Shown here in pieces: positions 3,505 through 18,447 of a stretch of DNA of 64,000 bases. The number at the start of each line of letters is the position of its first letter. The first letter of the stretch is position 1. The DNA is from Stackebrandtia sp. (lineage in GTDB: Bacteria; Actinomycetota; Actinomycetes; Mycobacteriales; Micromonosporaceae): contig NZ_DASQPW010000297.1 in assembly GCF_035643755.1 (NCBI RefSeq), positions 13,785 through 77,784 on the forward strand, read 5' to 3'. The notes beneath the pieces are model-generated. The model saw nothing but the letters and a program-made list of their open reading frames with translations, was not told the DNA's origin and made no database searches. The position numbers and the translations under genes are program-made.

Positions 3505-4710
3505 TCACCACCGCACCGGGACCTCGCGCAGCCCGCCCACCACGAGCCCCTCGACCCGGCGCAGCCGCTCCACCGGCACCGCCAGCTCGAGACCGGGCAT
3601 CCGGCGCAGCAGCACCTCCAGCACGGCCTGCAGCTCGGTGCGCGCCAATGCCTGCCCCAGACAGGAATGCGCACCCGCGCCGAAGGCCAGGTGCGGATTG
3701 GGGCTGCGGCCCAGGTCCATGTCGGCGGCGTTGTCGAAGGCGGACTCGTCGCGGTTGGCCGCCGCCATGCTGCACACCACGGTCGAGCCTCCCGCCACGG
3801 TGGCGCCGGCGATCTCGGCGTCGTCGGGGATGAAGCGCGGCATGCCGAAGCCCGCGTTGGCGTCGAACCGCAGCGCCTCCTCCACCGCGGTGCGCACCAG
3901 CGAGCGGTCGGCCACCAGCCGCTCCCAGCGTTCGCGCGGCGACAGCAGCATCGCGACCATCTTGCCGATCATGTTCGCGGTGGTCTCGTGCCCGGCGATG
4001 AGCAGGCCCTGCCCGGTGGCGATCAGTTCGGCGTCGGACATCGGGTAGTCGGCGTCGGCGATGAGCGTCGACAACAGGTCGTCGCGGGGCGCGGCGCGCT
4101 TGGCGTCCACATGGGACTTCAGGTACGCGATGAATGCCGCCTGCGCCTCGGCGACCTGCCGCGGCGTGAACCGGTCCAGGCTGAGCATGGCGTCGGACCA
4201 GCCGGAGAACGAGTCGCGGTCGGCGTCGGGGACGCCCAGCAGCTCGCAGATCACCCACACCGGCAGCGGGAAACCCAGGCGCGCCTTGAGATCCGCCGGT
4301 TGCCCGTCGGCGACCATCTCGTCGATGAGCCGCTCGGCCATGTCCTCGATGCCCGGCCGCAGCGCCGCCATCCGCTTGGCGGTGAACCACTTGCCGATGG
4401 CGCGGCGCCAGCGCTGGTGCTCGGGCCCGCCGTTCGGGATGGACGCCGCCATCTCGCTGTTGAACACCCCGCCGGATTCGTTCGCGGTGATCCGGGCGGC
4501 GTCGGGATTGTGCGTCGGGCGGGAGAACCGCGGGTCGGACAGCACCTGTTTGACGTCGGCGTGGCGGGTCAGCAGGGACGCGGCGTCCCCGCTGGGCAGC
4601 CTCACCTCGGCGATCGGGCAGCCGCGCCGCAGCCGCTCCCACTCGGATGGCGGCTCAAGCGCCGCATCGCCGACAATGGGGTAATGCAGGGTCGTTTCGT
4701 TGTGGCTCAC
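3505..4710 (-). CDS. Cytochrome P450 (CYP107-like)
   Basis: AGHETT, EEALR, FGAGAHSCLG. Confidence 0.95.
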   Translation of the reverse strand: MSHNETTLHYPIVGDAALEPPSEWERLRRGCPIAEVRLPSGDAASLLTRHADVKQVLSDPRFSRPTHNPDAARITANESGGVFNSEMAASIPNGGPEHQRWRRAIGKWFTAKRMAALRPGIEDMAERLIDEMVADGQPADLKARLGFPLPVWVICELLGVPDADRDSFSGWSDAMLSLDRFTPRQVAEAQAAFIAYLKSHVDAKRAAPRDDLLSTLIADADYPMSDAELIATGQGLLIAGHETTANMIGKMVAMLLSPRERWERLVADRSLVRTAVEEALRFDANAGFGMPRFIPDDAEIAGATVAGGSTVVCSMAAANRDESAFDNAADMDLGRSPNPHLAFGAGAHSCLGQALARTELQAVLEVLLRRMPGLELAVPVERLRRVEGLVVGGLREVPVRW

Positions 4711-10657: not shown

Positions 10658-12253
10658 ATGCACCGCGATCAGTTGCTGGGCAACCGTTATCGGCTGGAGA
10701 AGCCGGTCGGTTCCGGCGGCATGGGTGAGGTCTGGCAGGCCACGGACCAGGCCCTGAACCGCACGGTGGCGGCCAAGATCCTGCATCCCGCCCTGGGTGC
10801 CGACGCGCAGTTCCGGGAGAGATTCCTCCGCGAGGCGCGGACGCTCGCCAAGCTGTCGTCGCCGGGCATTGTGAACATCTTCGACGCCCGCGAGGAGACC
10901 ACCGAGGACGGTTCCCACGTCTTCTACCTGGTCATGGACTACGTGACCGGCCGCCCGCTGTCGGAGCTGTTGCGCGAGCAGGGGCGGATGGACGCCGCGT
11001 GGGTGATGTCCATGGTGGCGAAGGTGGCCGCCGGCCTCAACGCCGCCCACCACGCCGGGGTGGTGCACCGCGACGTCAAGCCCCAGAACATCCTGGTCGA
11101 CGACGACGGCACGGCCACCATCGTGGACTTCGGCATCGCCCGCACCCACGGCCAGACCGGCCTCACCATGACCGGCACCGTCATGGGGACGGTCACCTAC
11201 GCGTCTCCCGAGCAGTTGCAGGACGAGGACCTCACCGGCGCATCGGACGTCTACTCCCTGGGCGTGGTCGCCTACGAATGCCTCACCGGCAACCCGCCGT
11301 TCCAGGGCGGCACCACCGCCGCCACCATCACCGGGCACCTCACCCAGCCGCCGCCCCCGCTGCCGGTCGACGTGCCCGTGCCCGTCGCCGAGGTGGTGAT
11401 GCGGGCCCTGGCCAAGACCCCCGCCGAGCGCTACCCCTCGGCGTCGGCGTTCGCGCACGACTGCCGCCAGGCCGCGTCGGGACGGATGCCGCTGCCGCCC
11501 GCCACCGAGGCCATCCCGGCCCCGCCATCGCCCCCTCGACCGGCGCCGCAGCCCGCCCCGCAACCCGCGGCGGCCCGGGCGCCGATGCCGACCAACCCCA
11601 TGCCGGTCGCCGAACCCGACTACCGCCCCGTGCCCACCCCCGCAAAGCCCAAGCCCAACAAGCCACGGCGGCGCCGCGGCCGCGCCGTGCTGGTCACGCT
11701 GTTGATCCTGCTCCTCATCGCCGGCGCCGCCGCGGCGTACGTGTACTGGCCCAAGGGGCGCGGCAACGCGGCATCGCCGAACAACACCGACTCGACGTCG
11801 CAGTCCTCGTCGCCACCGGCGAAGGCCCCCGACGGCGTCACCAAAGAACCCACCCAGGTCATCAGCGTCGCCACCGGCAAGTGCCTCGACATCGGCAGTC
11901 TCGGCGTCACCACCCCCGACTGCTCCGAGGACAACCACAAGACGTTCACCTTCACGCGGGTCGCCAATGCCAGCCCCAACAACAACGTCTACTTCTTTGA
12001 GGACGAGGGCGACAAGTGCGTCAATGTCGACCCGAAGGGGCCGAAGCTCTCCGATGGAGAGTGCACGAAGGACTCGCGCTGGCGCCTGACCTGGATCAGG
12101 ACCGCGGACGGATGGGATGTGTGGAAGATCCAGCACCCCGCCGGCACGGACCACCTGTGCCTGATGGCCGACAACACCAAGCTCGGAGTCGGGCTCGCGG
12201 AGTGCGACAACACCAAGAAGTCCCGCTGGCGCACCGTGTCCGCGTCCTCGTGA
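10658..12253 (+). CDS. Ser/Thr protein kinase with TM and ricin-B-like extracellular domain
   Basis: GSGGMGEV, VAAK, HRDVKPQN, DFG, YASPE; Pro-rich linker, TM, then ATGKCLDI...W repeats. Confidence 0.92.
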   Translation: MHRDQLLGNRYRLEKPVGSGGMGEVWQATDQALNRTVAAKILHPALGADAQFRERFLREARTLAKLSSPGIVNIFDAREETTEDGSHVFYLVMDYVTGRPLSELLREQGRMDAAWVMSMVAKVAAGLNAAHHAGVVHRDVKPQNILVDDDGTATIVDFGIARTHGQTGLTMTGTVMGTVTYASPEQLQDEDLTGASDVYSLGVVAYECLTGNPPFQGGTTAATITGHLTQPPPPLPVDVPVPVAEVVMRALAKTPAERYPSASAFAHDCRQAASGRMPLPPATEAIPAPPSPPRPAPQPAPQPAAARAPMPTNPMPVAEPDYRPVPTPAKPKPNKPRRRRGRAVLVTLLILLLIAGAAAAYVYWPKGRGNAASPNNTDSTSQSSSPPAKAPDGVTKEPTQVISVATGKCLDIGSLGVTTPDCSEDNHKTFTFTRVANASPNNNVYFFEDEGDKCVNVDPKGPKLSDGECTKDSRWRLTWIRTADGWDVWKIQHPAGTDHLCLMADNTKLGVGLAECDNTKKSRWRTVSASS

Positions 12254-12321: not shown

Positions 12322-12807
12322 ATGAACACCGAAACCGTCAGCGCCACCCTGGCCTTCCCCGCGCCCGCCGCGATGGTGTTCGCGGCACTGGCCGATCCCA
12401 CGACCCACGCCGCCATCGACGGCACCGGTTGGGTCCGGGGATCCATCAACCAGGCTCCGCTGTCCACAGTGGGCCAGATCTTCCGGATGCGCATGTACCA
12501 CGCCGACCACCCCGACGGCGACTACCGCACGGTCAACAAGGTCGTCGTCTTCGACCGACCCCGCGCGATCGCCTGGACGACCGGCCAGGAACTGGACGAC
12601 GGCGAGCGGGAATTCGGCGGCTGGATCTGGCGCTACGACCTCGCACCCGTCGACGAGTCCACGACGGAGGTCACGCACACCTACGACTGGTCGGCGGTGC
12701 CCCGGTACGTCCGCGACCGCGGCATCACCTTTCCCCCCTTCGGTCCCGGCCACCTCGCCAACTCACTGCGCCACCTGCGCGACCTCATCACCGAGGCTTC
12801 GCGGTGA
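12322..12807 (+). CDS. SRPBCC/polyketide cyclase-like protein
   Basis: VFAALADP..H.AIDGTGWV...IAW...GGWIWRYDL...VTHTYDWS; GAGGAG RBS. Confidence 0.75.
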   Translation: MNTETVSATLAFPAPAAMVFAALADPTTHAAIDGTGWVRGSINQAPLSTVGQIFRMRMYHADHPDGDYRTVNKVVVFDRPRAIAWTTGQELDDGEREFGGWIWRYDLAPVDESTTEVTHTYDWSAVPRYVRDRGITFPPFGPGHLANSLRHLRDLITEASR

Positions 12808-13435
12808 ACACCAGGTGCGTGACCCCGCTGGGGGTCGAGACCGCCTCGATGTCGTAGGAGTCCTCAAGCGACTCCAGGCCGTCCCACAGCCGAACCCCGC
12901 GGCCCAGCACCATGGGCACCTGCACCACGTGCATGAAGTCGACCAGCCCCGCGGCGAGGAAGTCGCGGCACACGGTCGGCCCGCCCCCGATCCGCACGTC
13001 CCCGCCGTCGGCGGCCTCGCGCGCGGCGGTCAACGCCTCGCTCGGCGCGGCGTCGAGGAAGTGGAACGTGGTGCCGCCGGCCATCTCGATGGACGGCCGC
13101 GGCCGATGCGTCAGCACGAACACCGGGGTGTGGAACGGCGGGTTCGGGCCCCACCACCCCTTCCAGCCGGCGTCGTCCTGCCACCCGGGCGGCCCGAACT
13201 TTCCCGCGCCCATGATCTCGGCCCCGATCCCGGGCTCGAACCACGCCGCGATCGCGTTGTCGACGCCGCGACCGCCGCCCTCCTCCCCGGTCTGCTGGTG
13301 GAAGAACCGGGTGCGAACCATCCACTCGTGCAGCCGATGTCCGGCGTGCCCGAACGGGTCGTCGAGGCTCAGCCCCTCCCCGGTGGCGAACCCGTCGAGC
13401 GAGATCGAGAAGTTGTGGATGCGTGCCTCGGACAT
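12788..13435 (-). CDS. Dihydrofolate reductase/RibD C-terminal family protein
   Basis: ISLDGF, IMGAGKF, PVFVLTH, IGGG...FLAAGLVD...PMVLGRGVRL; start at 13435 or 13441. Confidence 0.88.
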   Translation of the reverse strand: MSEARIHNFSISLDGFATGEGLSLDDPFGHAGHRLHEWMVRTRFFHQQTGEEGGGRGVDNAIAAWFEPGIGAEIMGAGKFGPPGWQDDAGWKGWWGPNPPFHTPVFVLTHRPRPSIEMAGGTTFHFLDAAPSEALTAAREAADGGDVRIGGGPTVCRDFLAAGLVDFMHVVQVPMVLGRGVRLWDGLESLEDSYDIEAVSTPSGVTHLVFTAKPR

Positions 13436-13632
13436 GGTCATGGTCTCCCTGTGTTCCATCGACGGTGGGATCCCAGCATGCACCGAATATCCGTGCCCAG
13501 CACGGATACGGCGCCGTGGCTTCGGTGGAAGGCTTGCCGACGTCTCCCGAACGTTCCGGCGATCGGGAGGGTATCCAGCCGAAACACCCGGTGTGGCGAG
13601 CGCCGTGCCGGCACTTTATGAGGAGGAATCGG

Positions 13633-13794
13633 ATGACTCTTGTTGTGCCTTCGCGCGAGGACCTGCGCGGTGAGCTGACTGTGGACGAGGGCCCCGCGGC
13701 GGTGGCGGCCGAGCACCAGGCGGGCGCCGCGTGCATGTACCAGGTGCAGGTCGCGTTGTCGGTTGACGACGTCAGCCCGGTCACCGAAAGCTGA
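13633..13794 (+). CDS. Putative RiPP precursor peptide (53 aa)
   Basis: GAGGAGGA RBS then ATG 13633; MTLVVPSREDLRGELTVDEGPAAVAAEHQAGAACMYQVQVALSVDDVSPVTES; directly upstream of ycaO-tfuA on the same strand. Confidence 0.75.
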   Translation: MTLVVPSREDLRGELTVDEGPAAVAAEHQAGAACMYQVQVALSVDDVSPVTES

Positions 13795-13800
13795 CCGCGA

Positions 13801-13847
13801 CCCGGTCACGTCCACGTCGAACGCGGAGTCGCGGGGACGTGACCGGG
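13801..13847 (+). terminator. Stem-loop between the precursor gene and ycaO (mRNA stabiliser or attenuator)
   Basis: Perfect 13-bp inverted repeat CCCGGTCACGTCC (13801-13813) / GGACGTGACCGGG (13835-13847). Confidence 0.65.
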
Positions 13848-13871: not shown

Positions 13872-15068
13872 ATGATCGGCACTGACACGAATCTGGCCGT
13901 GCGGGGCGTACCGGTGGACGACGCGGCGTACAAGAGCGTCGTGGCCGGTACACATCGGACGTGCGCCCCGGAGCGGACGCTGGCGCGGATCGTGCCGTTG
14001 TTGCCGCGCATGGGCATCACTCGGCTGTCGGACGTGACCTGGCTGGACGACATCGGGGTGCCGGTCTTTCAGGCGGTGCGGCCCAACTCGTACACGATCT
14101 CGGTGTCGCAGGGCAAGGGGCTGACCCCGGACCTGGCGAAGGTGTCGGCGGCGATGGAGTCGATCGAGACGTGGCACGCCGAACGCCTGCCGCCCGGCGA
14201 CACCCGCGACACCGTGGCGGCGATCGCGCCCGAGCTCGACTATGGACTGGACGAGTTGCCGCTGTTGCCCCGGCATCACCTGAACCCCGGCGCCACGGTG
14301 GAATGGGGTCGGGCCCGCCGGTTGATCGACGGCACCGACACGTTGGTGCCGATGGAGTGCCTGCGATTGGACGGGCGCACCTCGGCTCGATGGCAGCTGC
14401 CGCTGTTTCACACCACGAGCAACGGGCTGGCCAGCGGCAACACCGTCGGCGAGGCGACGCTTCACGCGCTGTACGAGGTCATTGAGCGGGACGCGATCGC
14501 CCGCGCCGCCACCGCCGACGGCACGGTCGTGGTGGACCTCGACAGCGTCGGCGGCGACGCCGCGGAACTCATCGAACGGTTGCGGGCGGCGGAGGTCGCG
14601 GTGCGGGTGGACGTGTTGCCGAGCCCCACGGGTGTGGCGTGCGTTCGGGCCAGGATCGTCAGCGACGCGTTTCCCTACGTGTTCGAGGGAATGGGCGCCC
14701 ACCTCGACCGGGACGTGGCGTTCTGCCGCGCCGTCACGGAGGCCGTCCAGTCGCGGGTGACCGCGATTTCGGGCGCCCGCGACGACATGCGCGGCGACTG
14801 GTACCGGCGGGCCGGGTTGGTGGCCGCCGGGCGGTCCGGGACGCCGGATCTCGAGCCGCTGTACCGCAACCCGGTTCGGACCGCCTTCGGCGACGTCCCA
14901 TCGGTGCGCCACGCGACGCTGGGCGAGGACCTGACGCGGGTGGCCCACCTGGTGCGCGGGCATACGGGGCGGGATCCGTTGGTGGTGGACCATACCCGGC
15001 CGGACATCGGGATCGCGGTGGTGCGCGTGGTGTGCCCGGGTCTGCGCTACAACCCCGAGGCCGGGTGA
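13872..15068 (+). CDS. ycaO: YcaO-family protein, TfuA-associated (thioamide-forming type)
   Basis: GITRLSDVTWLDDIGVPV, SQGKG..AKVSAAMESIE, SNGLASGN...ALYEVIERDA, AVTEAVQSR...ISGARDD, C-terminal VVCPGL; GAGGA RBS before ATG 13872. Confidence 0.95.
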   Translation: MIGTDTNLAVRGVPVDDAAYKSVVAGTHRTCAPERTLARIVPLLPRMGITRLSDVTWLDDIGVPVFQAVRPNSYTISVSQGKGLTPDLAKVSAAMESIETWHAERLPPGDTRDTVAAIAPELDYGLDELPLLPRHHLNPGATVEWGRARRLIDGTDTLVPMECLRLDGRTSARWQLPLFHTTSNGLASGNTVGEATLHALYEVIERDAIARAATADGTVVVDLDSVGGDAAELIERLRAAEVAVRVDVLPSPTGVACVRARIVSDAFPYVFEGMGAHLDRDVAFCRAVTEAVQSRVTAISGARDDMRGDWYRRAGLVAAGRSGTPDLEPLYRNPVRTAFGDVPSVRHATLGEDLTRVAHLVRGHTGRDPLVVDHTRPDIGIAVVRVVCPGLRYNPEAG

Positions 15069-15072
15069 GGGC

Positions 15073-16455
15073 ATGACACGGCGAGTGCTGTTTTGCGGGC
15101 CGAGCCTGCCGGACGCGGGCGAGCTGCTGGCGGACGACGACATCGAGCTGCTGCCGCCGATCGCGGCCGGCGACCTGCTGGGCCTGTCGGCCGGACAGGG
15201 CGACGTCATCGGGATCGTCGACGGGTACTTCCATCAGACGCGTTCGGTGCGGCACAAGGAGATCCTGGCCGTCATGGACGACGGCGCGCGGGTGCTGGGC
15301 GCCGCGAGCCTCGGCGCGTTGCGGGCCGCAGAGCTGGACACCCTCGGGATGGAGGGGGTGGGGCGCGTCTACCGGGACTACCGGGACGGCGTCCTGACCG
15401 CCGACGACGAGGTGACCCTCACCCATGGACCGGCCGACACCCGGTATCGGCGGATGTCGGAGCCCCTGGTGAACATTCGGGCGACCCTCGACGCGGCGGT
15501 CGACGCGGGGCTCGTGCCGCCGGACGAAGCGCGGGCGCTGGTGGAGCGGCTGGCGGCGATGCCCTACTCGCAGCGCACCTTCCCCCGGCTTTCGGCGCTG
15601 GCCGCCGCGCGGGGATTGCCGGACGACATGGTGCGGCGGCTGGACGGGTTCTGCCGCGGGCATGCGGTGGATCGCAAGCGGTCGGACGCGGTGGAGCTGG
15701 TGCACCGGCTGCGCGAGACGGCGCCGGTGGCCGTCAAGCGGTCGCCGGTGAGCCGGACGATCTTCCTGCACGCGTGGCAGGTCGCGGCGGCGGGCGGCGA
15801 CGCGGGCGACGGCGCCGGTTGGGTCGCCGACCTGTCGGTGTTGCGGATCTGTCAGGCCCTGGCGGACGACTATCCCGGGCTGCACCGCGCGACCGTGCTG
15901 CGGCGGTTGGCCGACGAGTGCCGGGCAACCTGCGGCGGCACCACCGGTGACGTCGAGGATGTGGCGATCGCGCACGGGGTGCACCGGGGCATCTACCCTC
16001 CCCTGGACGCATCGGCCGACTGGTCCTTTCTGGATGGATGGCTGTCCGGTGTGGAGCGGAACCACTGGGGCCCGCGCGCGCGGGTGCTCGCCTTCCTGGT
16101 GCGCGGCTTTCGGGTGGCGCCGGGGATCATCGACGATCTCGGCGCGATAGGCGAGCTGCTGTCGCGGCCCGACCTGGTGCGGCGGGCGCGGCGGATCGCC
16201 GGTTACGCCCGCGAGGTCAACCGGGGCGCCGCCGACAGCGAACCCGGCTTCTCGGTGGCGGCGATTCCGTCGGGGCGCGTCGTCGACTGGCTGTGCCGCC
16301 GCTGGCACACCACGCGCGAAGAGTTGCCCTACCGCGTCATGGACCGCGGTCTCGACACCGTGGACACCATGGTGGCGGGCGCGCGGCCGTACTACCTGCT
16401 GGCCACGTACAACCCTCACGCCGCGGCGCTGTCGATCGCGGAGGACGCCCCATGA
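15073..16455 (+). CDS. tfuA: TfuA-like protein with long C-terminal extension
   Basis: VLFCGPSL, PPIAAGDL, IGIVDGYF...SVRHKEIL, GAASLGALRAAEL, DDEV, SEPLVNIRATL. Confidence 0.93.
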   Translation: MTRRVLFCGPSLPDAGELLADDDIELLPPIAAGDLLGLSAGQGDVIGIVDGYFHQTRSVRHKEILAVMDDGARVLGAASLGALRAAELDTLGMEGVGRVYRDYRDGVLTADDEVTLTHGPADTRYRRMSEPLVNIRATLDAAVDAGLVPPDEARALVERLAAMPYSQRTFPRLSALAAARGLPDDMVRRLDGFCRGHAVDRKRSDAVELVHRLRETAPVAVKRSPVSRTIFLHAWQVAAAGGDAGDGAGWVADLSVLRICQALADDYPGLHRATVLRRLADECRATCGGTTGDVEDVAIAHGVHRGIYPPLDASADWSFLDGWLSGVERNHWGPRARVLAFLVRGFRVAPGIIDDLGAIGELLSRPDLVRRARRIAGYAREVNRGAADSEPGFSVAAIPSGRVVDWLCRRWHTTREELPYRVMDRGLDTVDTMVAGARPYYLLATYNPHAAALSIAEDAP

Positions 16456-17213
16456 GTTCGGCACGCGCCGCCGCGGCGTTCGACCGGGGGTACGCCGCCA
16501 TCGCCGCCTCGGCGCGCCACGGCGAGCTGTTCAGCCGGGCGCTGGGCCTGCCGCCGGAGGTCGCGGCGAACTCCTTTCTCACCGCCGAGGCACTCGACGA
16601 CATCGCCGCGGCGCTGGGCATCGGCGCCGGCGACCGGCTGGCCGACCTCGGCTGCGGACGGGGCGGGCCCGGTCTGTGGCTCGCCCGCCGGCTCGGGGCC
16701 GCGCTGGACGGCGTCGACTTCTCGGCGGTCGCGGTGTGGCAGGCGGGCGAACGCGCCCAAGGGTTTGGACTCGCCGACCGCTCGTCCTTCCGCGTCGGCG
16801 ACCTGTGCGACACGGGGTTGCCGAGCGGGCGGGCGGGAGCGGCGGTGTGCGTCGACGCGTTTCACTTCGCGGCCGATCACGACGCCGAGGCCGCCGAGGC
16901 GTGGCGGATCCTGCGGCCCGGCGGGCGATACGTCCTGACGAACTGGGAACCCGTCGCCGCCGACGACGCGCGGGTGCCGCCGCCGCTGCGGCTCGACTTC
17001 GCGCGGATCCTCACCGCGGCGGGGTTTCGGGCCGTGACGGTGTCGAAACGGCCCGACCTGGAGGCCGCCCAGCGGGCGCTGTTCGCCGCCGTGCTGGCCA
17101 CCGAGCCCGGCGACGACCCCGCGATCCGGGCGCTACGCGCCGAGGCCGCGGCGGTGGACGGCTGGGCGGGGCTCATGCGCCGCGTCCTCGTGGTCGCCGA
17201 AAAACCCGCCTGA
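16452..17213 (+). CDS. Class I SAM-dependent methyltransferase
   Basis: ADLGCGRGG motif I, GVDFS, RILRPGG; ATGA overlap with the tfuA stop. Confidence 0.9.
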   Translation: MSSARAAAAFDRGYAAIAASARHGELFSRALGLPPEVAANSFLTAEALDDIAAALGIGAGDRLADLGCGRGGPGLWLARRLGAALDGVDFSAVAVWQAGERAQGFGLADRSSFRVGDLCDTGLPSGRAGAAVCVDAFHFAADHDAEAAEAWRILRPGGRYVLTNWEPVAADDARVPPPLRLDFARILTAAGFRAVTVSKRPDLEAAQRALFAAVLATEPGDDPAIRALRAEAAAVDGWAGLMRRVLVVAEKPA

Positions 17214-17220
17214 AACGGTG

Positions 17221-18447
17221 CTACCCCAGGCGCATCCCCGAGATGGCCCTGGCGATCACGAGCCGCTGGATCTCGCTGGTGCCCTCGAAGATCGTGTAGA
17301 TCTTGGCGTCGCGGTACCAGCGCTCCACGGGATGGTCGCGGGAGAACCCCGCCCCACCGAGGATCTGCACGGCCTTCTCCGTCGTGCGGATCGCCACCTC
17401 GCCCGCCTTCAGCTTGGACATCGACCCCTCGCCGGCGTCGAAGCTCTTGTCGTTGCGGCCCATCCAGGCCGCGCGCCACACGAGCAGGCGGGCGCAGTCG
17501 ATCTCGGTCTTCATGTCGGCCAGGGCGAAGCCGATCGCCTGGTTGGCGATGATGGGTCGTCCGAATTGGACGCGCTGCTTGGCGTAGTCCAGGGCGTACT
17601 CGTACGCGGCGCGGGCGATGCCCACGGCCTGGGCGCCGACGGTGGGTCGGGTGAGTTCGAAGGTGCGCATCGCCGCCTGCTGCCCCTGGCCAGGCTGGGT
17701 GGCGGCCTCGCGGGCGCGGGCGAGGCGGGCGTCGAGCTTTTCCTTGCCGCCCAACAGGCATCGGCCCGGAACGCGGACGTCGTCGAGGAAGACGTCGGCG
17801 GTGTGGGAGGCGCGCAGGCCCAGCTTGCGGATCTTGGTGGGGCTGGACAGCCCCGGCGTGCCCGGGGGGACGACGAAGGCGGCCTGGCCGCGGGACCCGA
17901 GCTCGGCGTCGACGGAGGCGGTGACGACATGGACGGTGGCGATGCCCGCGTTGGTGCCCCAGGCCTTCTGTCCGTTGAGGACCCATTCGTCGGTGGCCTC
18001 GTCGTAGCGGGCGCGGGTGCGCATGGAGGCGACGTCGGAGCCCGCCTCGGGTTCGGAGCTGCAGAAGGCGGCGACCTTGGGGTCGTCGGCGTCGCCGTAG
18101 CACTGGGGGACCCACTCCACGAGCTGGTCGGGGGTTCCCGAACCGTAGATCGCGGCCACCGCCAGGGAGGTGCCGAAGATGGACAGCCCGATTCCCGCGT
18201 CGCCCCAGAAGAGCTCCTCGTTGACCAGGGGCAGGCTCAGCCCGCTGGGGTCGGCCCAGAACTGGGCCAGGGACTCGAATCCGTACAGACCGATCTTGGC
18301 GGCCTCGGCGATGATCGGCCAGGGGGTCTCCTCGCGTTCGTCCCATTCGGACGCCGCGGGGCGGATCACGTCGGCGGCGAAGCCGTGCGCCCATTCCTGG
18401 ACGTCGCGCTGGTCCTGCGACAGCTCGAGGCTGAATCCGTCGTTCAT
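17221..18447 (-). CDS. Acyl-CoA dehydrogenase
   Basis: FCSSEPEAGSD, LNGQKAW, YAKQRVQFG, YRDAKIYTIFEGTSEIQR; start MNDGFSLELS. Confidence 0.95.
   Translation of the reverse strand: MNDGFSLELSQDQRDVQEWAHGFAADVIRPAASEWDEREETPWPIIAEAAKIGLYGFESLAQFWADPSGLSLPLVNEELFWGDAGIGLSIFGTSLAVAAIYGSGTPDQLVEWVPQCYGDADDPKVAAFCSSEPEAGSDVASMRTRARYDEATDEWVLNGQKAWGTNAGIATVHVVTASVDAELGSRGQAAFVVPPGTPGLSSPTKIRKLGLRASHTADVFLDDVRVPGRCLLGGKEKLDARLARAREAATQPGQGQQAAMRTFELTRPTVGAQAVGIARAAYEYALDYAKQRVQFGRPIIANQAIGFALADMKTEIDCARLLVWRAAWMGRNDKSFDAGEGSMSKLKAGEVAIRTTEKAVQILGGAGFSRDHPVERWYRDAKIYTIFEGTSEIQRLVIARAISGMRLG

Follow-up and report, generated by a model that had tools for sequence, protein, structure and literature searches.

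A short, easily missed gene of Stackebrandtia very likely specifies a precursor peptide in an uncharacterised family of thioamide RiPPs

Introduction

Thioamide peptides are rare, and several of them are bioactive. According to the accessible text of PMC13185837, the sulfide comes from ThiS-COSH through the action of TfuA, and YcaO makes the thioamide by way of an O-phosphorylated intermediate. A minimal set of precursor, YcaO and TfuA (varA, varY and varT of S. varsoviensis) is enough to make the thioamide of the thiovarsolins, whose short internal cores are trimmed out with no dedicated protease required, as described in the available part of PMC6511847. Thioamidation by YcaO/TfuA is also the first step towards the thioamitides, such as thioviridamide and thiostreptamide S4, and it stands beside a cleaved C-terminal follower in the std cluster of S. 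thermodiastaticus (PMC13174530, accessible portion). The McrA thioglycine system of methanogens contributes the nearest solved homologues of both enzymes considered here (MJ1094, 6PE3; TfuA, 6XP8), but it has a short TfuA and a protein substrate. Also among the systems closest to our locus is RiPPER Network 21 (Santos-Aberturas 2019, PMC6511847, Dataset 4), found in Glycomyces harbinensis, Micromonospora citrea and Streptomyces bingchenggensis and, in the part of that source available, predicted only. Within the literature searched, which excluded subscription journals and included some sources in part, we found no characterised product of Network 21 or of the family reported here; the accessible text of PMC12710340 makes no mention of TfuA, and the searchable part of the PMC8120280 supplement held no match for the family.

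Here we analyse a 64,000-nucleotide stretch of Stackebrandtia sp. DNA (the window), in which a reading made from the sequence alone had pointed to a 53-aa candidate precursor inside a longer open reading frame. We conclude that this ORF, which is easy to overlook, is very likely a precursor gene belonging to an uncharacterised family of thioamide RiPPs, one that was partly foreshadowed by Network 21.

Results

The cluster consists of four genes in 3.6 kb of the forward strand: the 53-aa precursor peptide gene (13633..13794, with its TGA stop at 13792-13794), a ycaO gene for a stand-alone thioamide-type YcaO (13872..15068; 398 aa, PF02624 E 2.6e-66), a long tfuA gene (15073..16455; 460 aa, PF07812 E 4.4e-45) and a gene for a class I SAM methyltransferase (16452..17213; 253 aa, PF13649/PF08241). 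The gap between ycaO and tfuA is 4 nt, and the tfuA stop and methyltransferase start overlap as ATGA. A divergent RibD_C (DHFR-like) gene (12788..13441, reverse strand), for which no tie to the cluster was found, forms the upstream boundary; downstream, the methyltransferase gene meets a convergent acyl-CoA dehydrogenase gene, which ends in a terminator-like hairpin (window 17207-17232, reverse strand) that overlaps the methyltransferase stop. Further upstream, window 10658-12253 (forward strand) encodes a Ser/Thr kinase in which a ricin-type lectin domain is weakly indicated at the C-terminus, with no link to the cluster. The 77-nt gap between the precursor stop and ycaO contains a stem-loop directly after the stop (13801..13847, forward strand; -37.2 kcal/mol, z -2.34, 3 of 200 shuffles as good), and a post-stop hairpin with z below -2 occurs at 15 of the 20 family loci surveyed, L015 being set aside as its scanned interval was placed 3 nt late. 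The stem-loop is likely an mRNA stabiliser or attenuator. A search for a sigma-70-like promoter, by a model whose coverage does not extend to actinomycete promoters, found none. A single ycaO and a single tfuA were found in the source genome (88% complete), and four ThiS-family genes lie elsewhere in it; among its 86,936 segments there was no convincing second precursor copy, the best other matches reaching E 0.08 for the leader and E 0.7 for the full profile. None of seven congeneric genomes matched TfuA or YcaO, so the cluster is patchy in its distribution. The locus is listed in one DNA record, which shows no differences but may be the source assembly itself and lends no independent support; no RNA record is listed for it.

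The frame of the peptide opens earlier, at GTG 13423, to give a 123-aa ORF that had been suspected of being spurious. Its 70-codon in-frame extension (13423..13632, forward strand) spans the divergent intergenic region, runs over the start of the RibD_C gene, has a flat GC content by codon position (GC1/2/3 = 0.63/0.63/0.66) and scores -0.64 per codon, whereas the 53 codons have GC1/2/3 = 0.77/0.45/0.85 and a codon log-likelihood of +0.22 per codon, with the five other frames across them scoring from -0.06 to -1.6. The extension thus scores as non-coding, and the suspicion was justified: the 123-aa ORF from 13423 is ruled out. The strong ribosome-binding site claimed for ATG 13633 is there too (GAGGAGGA, 13620..13627, forward strand, 5 nt from the ATG), and the translation is exactly as given. 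Among the 161 ATG-started ORFs of 40-65 aa in the 64-kb window, 37 do as well by codon score, four have a GGAGG ribosome-binding site and three have both, and composition and ribosome-binding site alone are modest to weak support for a gene. Conservation, described below, is the decisive evidence that the gene is real. The peptide has a pI of about 4 and ends T-E-S; its only His, Cys and Tyr (His28, Cys34 and Tyr36) do lie in the middle as first described, and it has neither a C-terminal Cys nor a repeat. Pfam and NCBIfam hold no family for it, or for the 23 members of our profile A2.

A phmmer search with the 53-aa peptide matched only itself and was uninformative, given a word index that misses relatives at 43% identity. 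Loci were instead collected via the long TfuA, and the region upstream of ycaO was read for short peptides. This neighbourhood mining gave 63 distinct related peptides in 37 clusters below 70% identity, some of which came from profile searches without DNA context; those with DNA context lie just upstream of the ycaO genes of one supported clade. The family is characterised by an N-terminal leader, L-x-L-P-T/S-x-x-E-L-x-x-E-L, and an acidic-hydrophobic motif at the C-terminus. Our first leader regular expression was drawn after seeing the Stackebrandtia peptide and was therefore circular, so three better tests were made. A leader HMM built from 15 other leaders, with the Stackebrandtia peptide left out, was run against 33,261 six-frame segments and recovered that peptide at E 0.0016. 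At E<=1.6 it had 10 non-seed matches, this one included, and every one of them lies 186-327 nt upstream of a same-strand ycaO. In the whole genome of Amycolatopsis minnesotensis, the peptide profile alone found a second locus (L201), with the peptide between a methyltransferase gene and ycaO; the two family clusters of this genome belong to separate subfamilies, and only one of them has a methyltransferase close by. Profile A2 matched seven of 14 later-fetched loci (E<=4e-5), in each case directly before ycaO, and had no match at the other seven, where one match is a repeat of an earlier locus and one miss (L206) comes from an unpublished genome, which also counts as a miss in the search of congeneric genomes and carries none of the positive claims. 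In a quick tree of YcaO sequences, with 50 hand-chosen rows (23 leader loci, of which L106 was assigned by eye, and 27 other long-TfuA loci; frameshifted or partial ycaO omitted, and the Kribbella YcaO fetched afterwards), a single clade of 30 rows (SH-aLRT 97) takes in every one of the 23 loci that bear the leader, and none of the 20 rows outside it carries the leader. The seven clade members without a leader peptide include several beside other RiPP genes, so possession of these enzymes does not imply this leader. A search of 400 genomes of the phylum with the peptide profile gave two weak matches inside long frames (E 0.002-0.003), and the Stackebrandtia peptide is a singleton at 90% identity. 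Related peptides precede related enzymes in many soil actinomycetes, and the short gene is conserved, co-located and co-varying with ycaO and tfuA. Together with the Kribbella relative described next, these results make it highly probable that the 53-aa ORF encodes a real RiPP precursor and substrate of the adjacent YcaO/TfuA, as the sequence-only reading had proposed.

The closest peptide, of 57 aa, precedes the closest YcaO (62.5% identical) in Kribbella sp. NPDC005582 and is identical at 23 of 54 positions (43%) end to end; none of 5000 shuffles reached the score of the post-leader alignment. The next-closest comes from A. minnesotensis L028, the sister in the YcaO tree, for which 19 of 5000 shuffles reached the post-leader score. 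Twelve residues (M1, V4, P6, S7, E14, L15, D18, G31, Q37, L42, D45 and D46) are invariant in all three; C34 and Y36 are kept only in Kribbella, and H28 only in L028. By leader HMM and column counts, residues 1-16 (13633..13680, forward strand; L-V-V-P-S-x-x-D-L-x-x-E-L) form a conserved leader, predicted to bind the enzymes. Residues 42-53 (13756..13791, forward strand; L-S-x-D-D-hydrophobic-x-P) form a conserved C-terminal block, and between the two lies a candidate core of about residues 27-41 (13711..13755, forward strand), which has uncertain boundaries and includes G31 and Q37. The segment of residues 26-37 matches Kribbella weakly (140 of 5000 shuffles as good), as against the strong match of residues 38-53 (1 of 5000), and the Ala run of the middle is not conserved. 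Aligning homologous peptides had been suggested as a way to find a conserved core; what proved to be conserved is the leader and the C-terminal block, and the middle is the least conserved part. Across the family, an aromatic residue lies 14-21 residues from the end in 34 of 37 clusters. The C-terminus follows D/E-hydrophobic-x-G-x, and 33 of the 37 clusters have D/E at -5 and 26 have Gly at -2; both stand at a fixed distance from the end, and length changes fall in the middle segment. The Stackebrandtia and Kribbella peptides have Pro in place of the Gly, and their acidic-hydrophobic pair lies 2-3 residues further in, with a longer tail.

Azole- and azoline-forming YcaOs of the SagD type carry a C-terminal PxPxP. 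The YcaO encoded here lacks it, no E1-like partner or oxidase genes were found in the operon, and the match to the SagD-type model TIGR03604 is 89 bits against a cut-off of 219; nor are the cut-offs of TIGR03266 (200 of 365 bits) and NF033432 (195.5 of 235.2 bits) reached. Its nearest solved structure is MJ1094 (E 6e-53), and its conserved motifs, which we take to be ATP-binding, are intact. Also intact are TfuA Ser79 and Lys202, which are kept in at least 90% of 44 homologues and align to the matching motifs of 6XP8, a match that covers profile positions 4-216 of TfuA. We infer that they are the Ser-Lys pair described in the accessible text of PMC13185837.

The TfuA domain proper occupies about residues 1-216, followed by an unnamed C-terminal domain (residues 225-460; 15745..16452, forward strand) that is mostly helical in a predicted model with pLDDT 94 and pTM 0.90 and has invariant W323, R344, W411, R425 and G426. 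A profile of this domain is present in 79 fetched loci, and the domain is more widespread than the leader; by the same profile it is absent from the thioamitide locus L187, with its 241-aa TfuA, and from the Network-22-like locus L188. We found no Pfam match for it, no Foldseek match at E<=0.001 and no Foldseek or Atlas match beyond its own family. The best VIA Z was 3.9, and several SurA/trigger-factor-like chains reached Z 2-3.2, weak or missing fold matches that show neither difference nor novelty. Pfam gave no match to a PqqD-like RRE, and the fold searches of the TfuA C-terminal domain list no RRE, in results that contain no clear match at all. Because no RRE was detected in the operon, this domain is a natural candidate for peptide recognition, a role that we assign to residues 225-460 only tentatively.

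In Kribbella sp. NPDC005582 the methyltransferase is fused to TfuA in one protein of 701 aa (P0007; L200:4532-6637, reverse strand), which shares 55% identity with the methyltransferase of the window over its final 243 residues, and this fusion ties the Stackebrandtia-type methyltransferase to the pathway. The Kribbella cluster has three genes and an adjoining, convergent M20 peptidase gene. Across the family, a methyltransferase was found at 16 of 29 leader loci, and five of the 13 loci without one hold under 5 kb. There are three types: the Stackebrandtia type at three loci, a second class I type at eight and a PF10017 type at five (one a partial match), with no pairwise match between types at E<=0.001. 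The nearest solved relatives of the Stackebrandtia enzyme are small-molecule enzymes such as MitM. Two close relatives, L016 and L019, and only these, have sulfate-activation genes (PAPS-reductase-domain and CysN/CysC-like) directly upstream of the methyltransferase gene on the same strand, possibly a local sulfur supply.

Discussion

If the peptide is a real precursor, its layout is probably leader-core-follower with an internal core, as first proposed. The conserved leader agrees with that proposal, and the follower is plausible; the suggested core boundaries do not fare as well, with the strongest post-leader match lying beyond them, and to judge from the alignments, constraint on the C-terminal part is no weaker than on HQAGAACMY. 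A different possibility is that the core is C-terminal, running from about residue 32 to the end or confined to the last 8-12 residues, with no follower and with thioamidation near the D-D-hydrophobic motif. This would account for the C-terminal block being the best-conserved part outside the leader, and for the family's D/E and Gly keeping their distance from the end while the middle varies in length; in the std cluster, moreover, the thioamidated residue lay in the C-terminal motif that was most conserved, but part of that motif was cleaved off as a follower (PMC13174530, accessible portion). Against it stands a set of duplications: P0164, P0169 (two peptides related to each other and without DNA context) and L015 each carry two tandem copies of a middle D-S-x-W segment but a single leader and tail, which favours leader-core-follower, as in multi-core precursors, though the Stackebrandtia peptide itself does not have the D-S-x-W element on which this argument rests. 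The Pro in place of Gly and the extended tail of the Stackebrandtia peptide also sit poorly with a C-terminal core, which we regard as doubtful, and we lean towards leader-core-follower. The doubled L015 gene (L015:4528-4752, Actinoallomurus purpureus) has an in-frame TAG at the Trp position of its first copy and may possibly be a pseudogene.

It is also conceivable, and in our view unlikely, that the peptide serves the YcaO/TfuA pair as an adaptor or regulator and that the pair thioamidates another protein, as with McrA or uL16. Conservation concentrated at both ends would suit binding elements, there is no conserved protease or exporter in the cluster, and the nearest solved YcaO is from a methanogen, with protein-modifying YcaOs on record in the available part of PMC13063428. 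Against this, the variable middle, the two precursor copies per locus in L022, L103 and L108, the subfamily-specific methyltransferases and the post-stop hairpin fit precursors, and the scores stay below the McrA-type NCBIfam cut-offs. A cluster that was acquired horizontally and is decaying, with a drifted peptide and no product, which would fit the lack of matches in the seven congeneric genomes, the singleton status and the departure from the family C-terminal motif, is the most improbable of these explanations, as all four frames are intact, catalytic motifs are present, and the post-leader sequence is conserved with Kribbella, the same deviations included.

Read as a precursor, the peptide resembles Network 21 in having the same L-P-T/S-x-x-E-L-x-x-E leader directly before ycaO-long tfuA, with enzymes of the same long-TfuA/YcaO clade, and our family profile recovered the Glycomyces harbinensis Network 21 peptide. 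Five peptides of the subfamily ending in H-G-A are Network 21 members among the predicted clusters of Dataset 4, and the Amycolatopsis and S. violaceorubidus relatives appear in the all-peptides sheet, as far as the available part of PMC6511847 goes; the leader spellings of the Stackebrandtia branch were not found in that part of Dataset 4. The Stackebrandtia peptide differs from Network 21 in that it has neither D-S/T-x-W nor P-A-D-V-H-G (of the tail, D-V alone aligns), shares no more than about 37% identity with that subfamily, and is accompanied by a methyltransferase of the PF13649 rather than the PF10017 type; with the Kribbella and A. minnesotensis peptides it forms a branch separate from the Network 21 subfamily. 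The sequence-only reading was right to set the peptide apart from thiovarsolins and thioamitides. Unlike the former, it has no APR or A-P-R/A-P-I-R units and no VarO. Unlike the latter, it lacks the C-terminal Cys of the AviCys ring, and its operon has no kinase/HopA1 dehydratase or decarboxylase genes; the thioamitide precursor model NF033415 found no match in the source genome (88% complete). By eye the leader shares an S-x-x-E/D-L-x-x-x-L spacing with thioamitide leaders, but the similarity is not significant (hhalign probability 0.4%), and comparisons with the Network 22 leader (L012) and at L188 were likewise not significant. The operon differs from std in having no MNIO, RRE partner, carbamoyltransferase-peptidase or SNKEWQE motif, as these are described in the accessible portion of PMC13174530.

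We rate the whole reading, a precursor with leader-core-follower layout in a four-gene RiPP operon (precursor, ycaO, long tfuA, methyltransferase), at slightly better than even; it builds on the gene order, the peptide conservation, the enzyme families and the TfuA-methyltransferase fusion in a relative. Weighing on the other side are the weakly conserved middle, the tail deviations shared with Kribbella, the clade members that lack the peptide and the leader loci at which no methyltransferase was found. Transcription of the operon would start in the divergent intergenic region, with the stem-loop keeping the peptide mRNA in excess. YcaO/TfuA would bind the peptide by its acidic leader (residues 1-16) and by its D-D-hydrophobic tail, most plausibly via the extra TfuA domain; TfuA would free sulfide from a thiocarboxylated ThiS-type carrier encoded elsewhere, and YcaO, with ATP, would phosphorylate backbone amide oxygens to give one or a few thioamides within about residues 27-41. 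The particular residues that we name as modified are far less probable than the layout itself. Gly and Ala had been put forward as thioamidation sites: Gly31 is kept in both nearest relatives and the bonds around it are our best guess, but the Ala run finds no such support. The SAM enzyme would then methylate the modified peptide. His, Cys or a freed N-terminus had been named as candidate sites; His28 is weakened by its replacement in Kribbella, which has an orthologous methyltransferase, whereas Cys34 is kept there. Our best guess is the Tyr36 hydroxyl, since Tyr36 is kept in Kribbella, where the same methyltransferase is kept (it is absent from L028, with no methyltransferase within the locus), and since a PF13649 enzyme is a Tyr O-methyltransferase in thiostreptamide (bioRxiv 2020.12.17.423248, accessible part), an argument that draws on three or four loci and a family-level analogy. 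The next guess would be Cys34 or the freed N-terminus. Host proteases would trim leader and tail, as the cluster has no conserved protease or exporter. By analogy, the likeliest role of the product would be as an antimicrobial or signalling compound.

We find it tempting to speculate, as a distinctly long shot, that the extra TfuA domain is a new non-RRE module clamping leader and follower, and that the methyltransferase, which would have been taken up on three occasions from unlike lineages and is fused to TfuA in one case, S-methylates the thioamide; the resulting thioimidate would ready the core for release without a protease. No report combining thioimidate, methyltransferase, thioamide and RiPP was found in the literature searched, which excluded subscription journals. 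Only if this clamp and thioimidate reading were true would the locus offer a new biological principle; otherwise it is a natural-product and enzymology lead. The leader-defined family unites Network 21 with scattered peptides, 63 in 37 clusters, served by the long TfuA, and solving it would show how RRE-less YcaO/TfuA pairs choose their peptide and what three dissimilar methyltransferases add. The compact cluster, with a culturable near-twin in Kribbella sp. NPDC005582, would be cheap to express.

Several other loci deserve mention in their own right. At L095:5611-11509 (reverse strand), a same-clade YcaO and long TfuA follow asparagine-synthase-like and ThcOx/nitroreductase genes, and no leader-motif peptide was found. 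JmjC-like oxygenases lie beside the long-TfuA/YcaO pair at L032:8383-9381 and L102:99-1481, and at L031:3016-3168 a Cys-rich 50-aa peptide occurs with nitroreductase and JmjC genes, a long TfuA and an apparently frameshifted ycaO. A divergent thioviridamide-like peptide, below the NF033415 cut-off and ending His-Cys, is encoded at L186:1501-1833 (reverse strand). In Streptomyces sp. NPDC021093 (L029, about 4286-4670), three short Thr/Val-rich peptides, which we take to resemble SapB/AmfS lanthipeptide precursors, stand directly before the long-TfuA/YcaO pair, and a thioamide-lanthipeptide hybrid is possible there.
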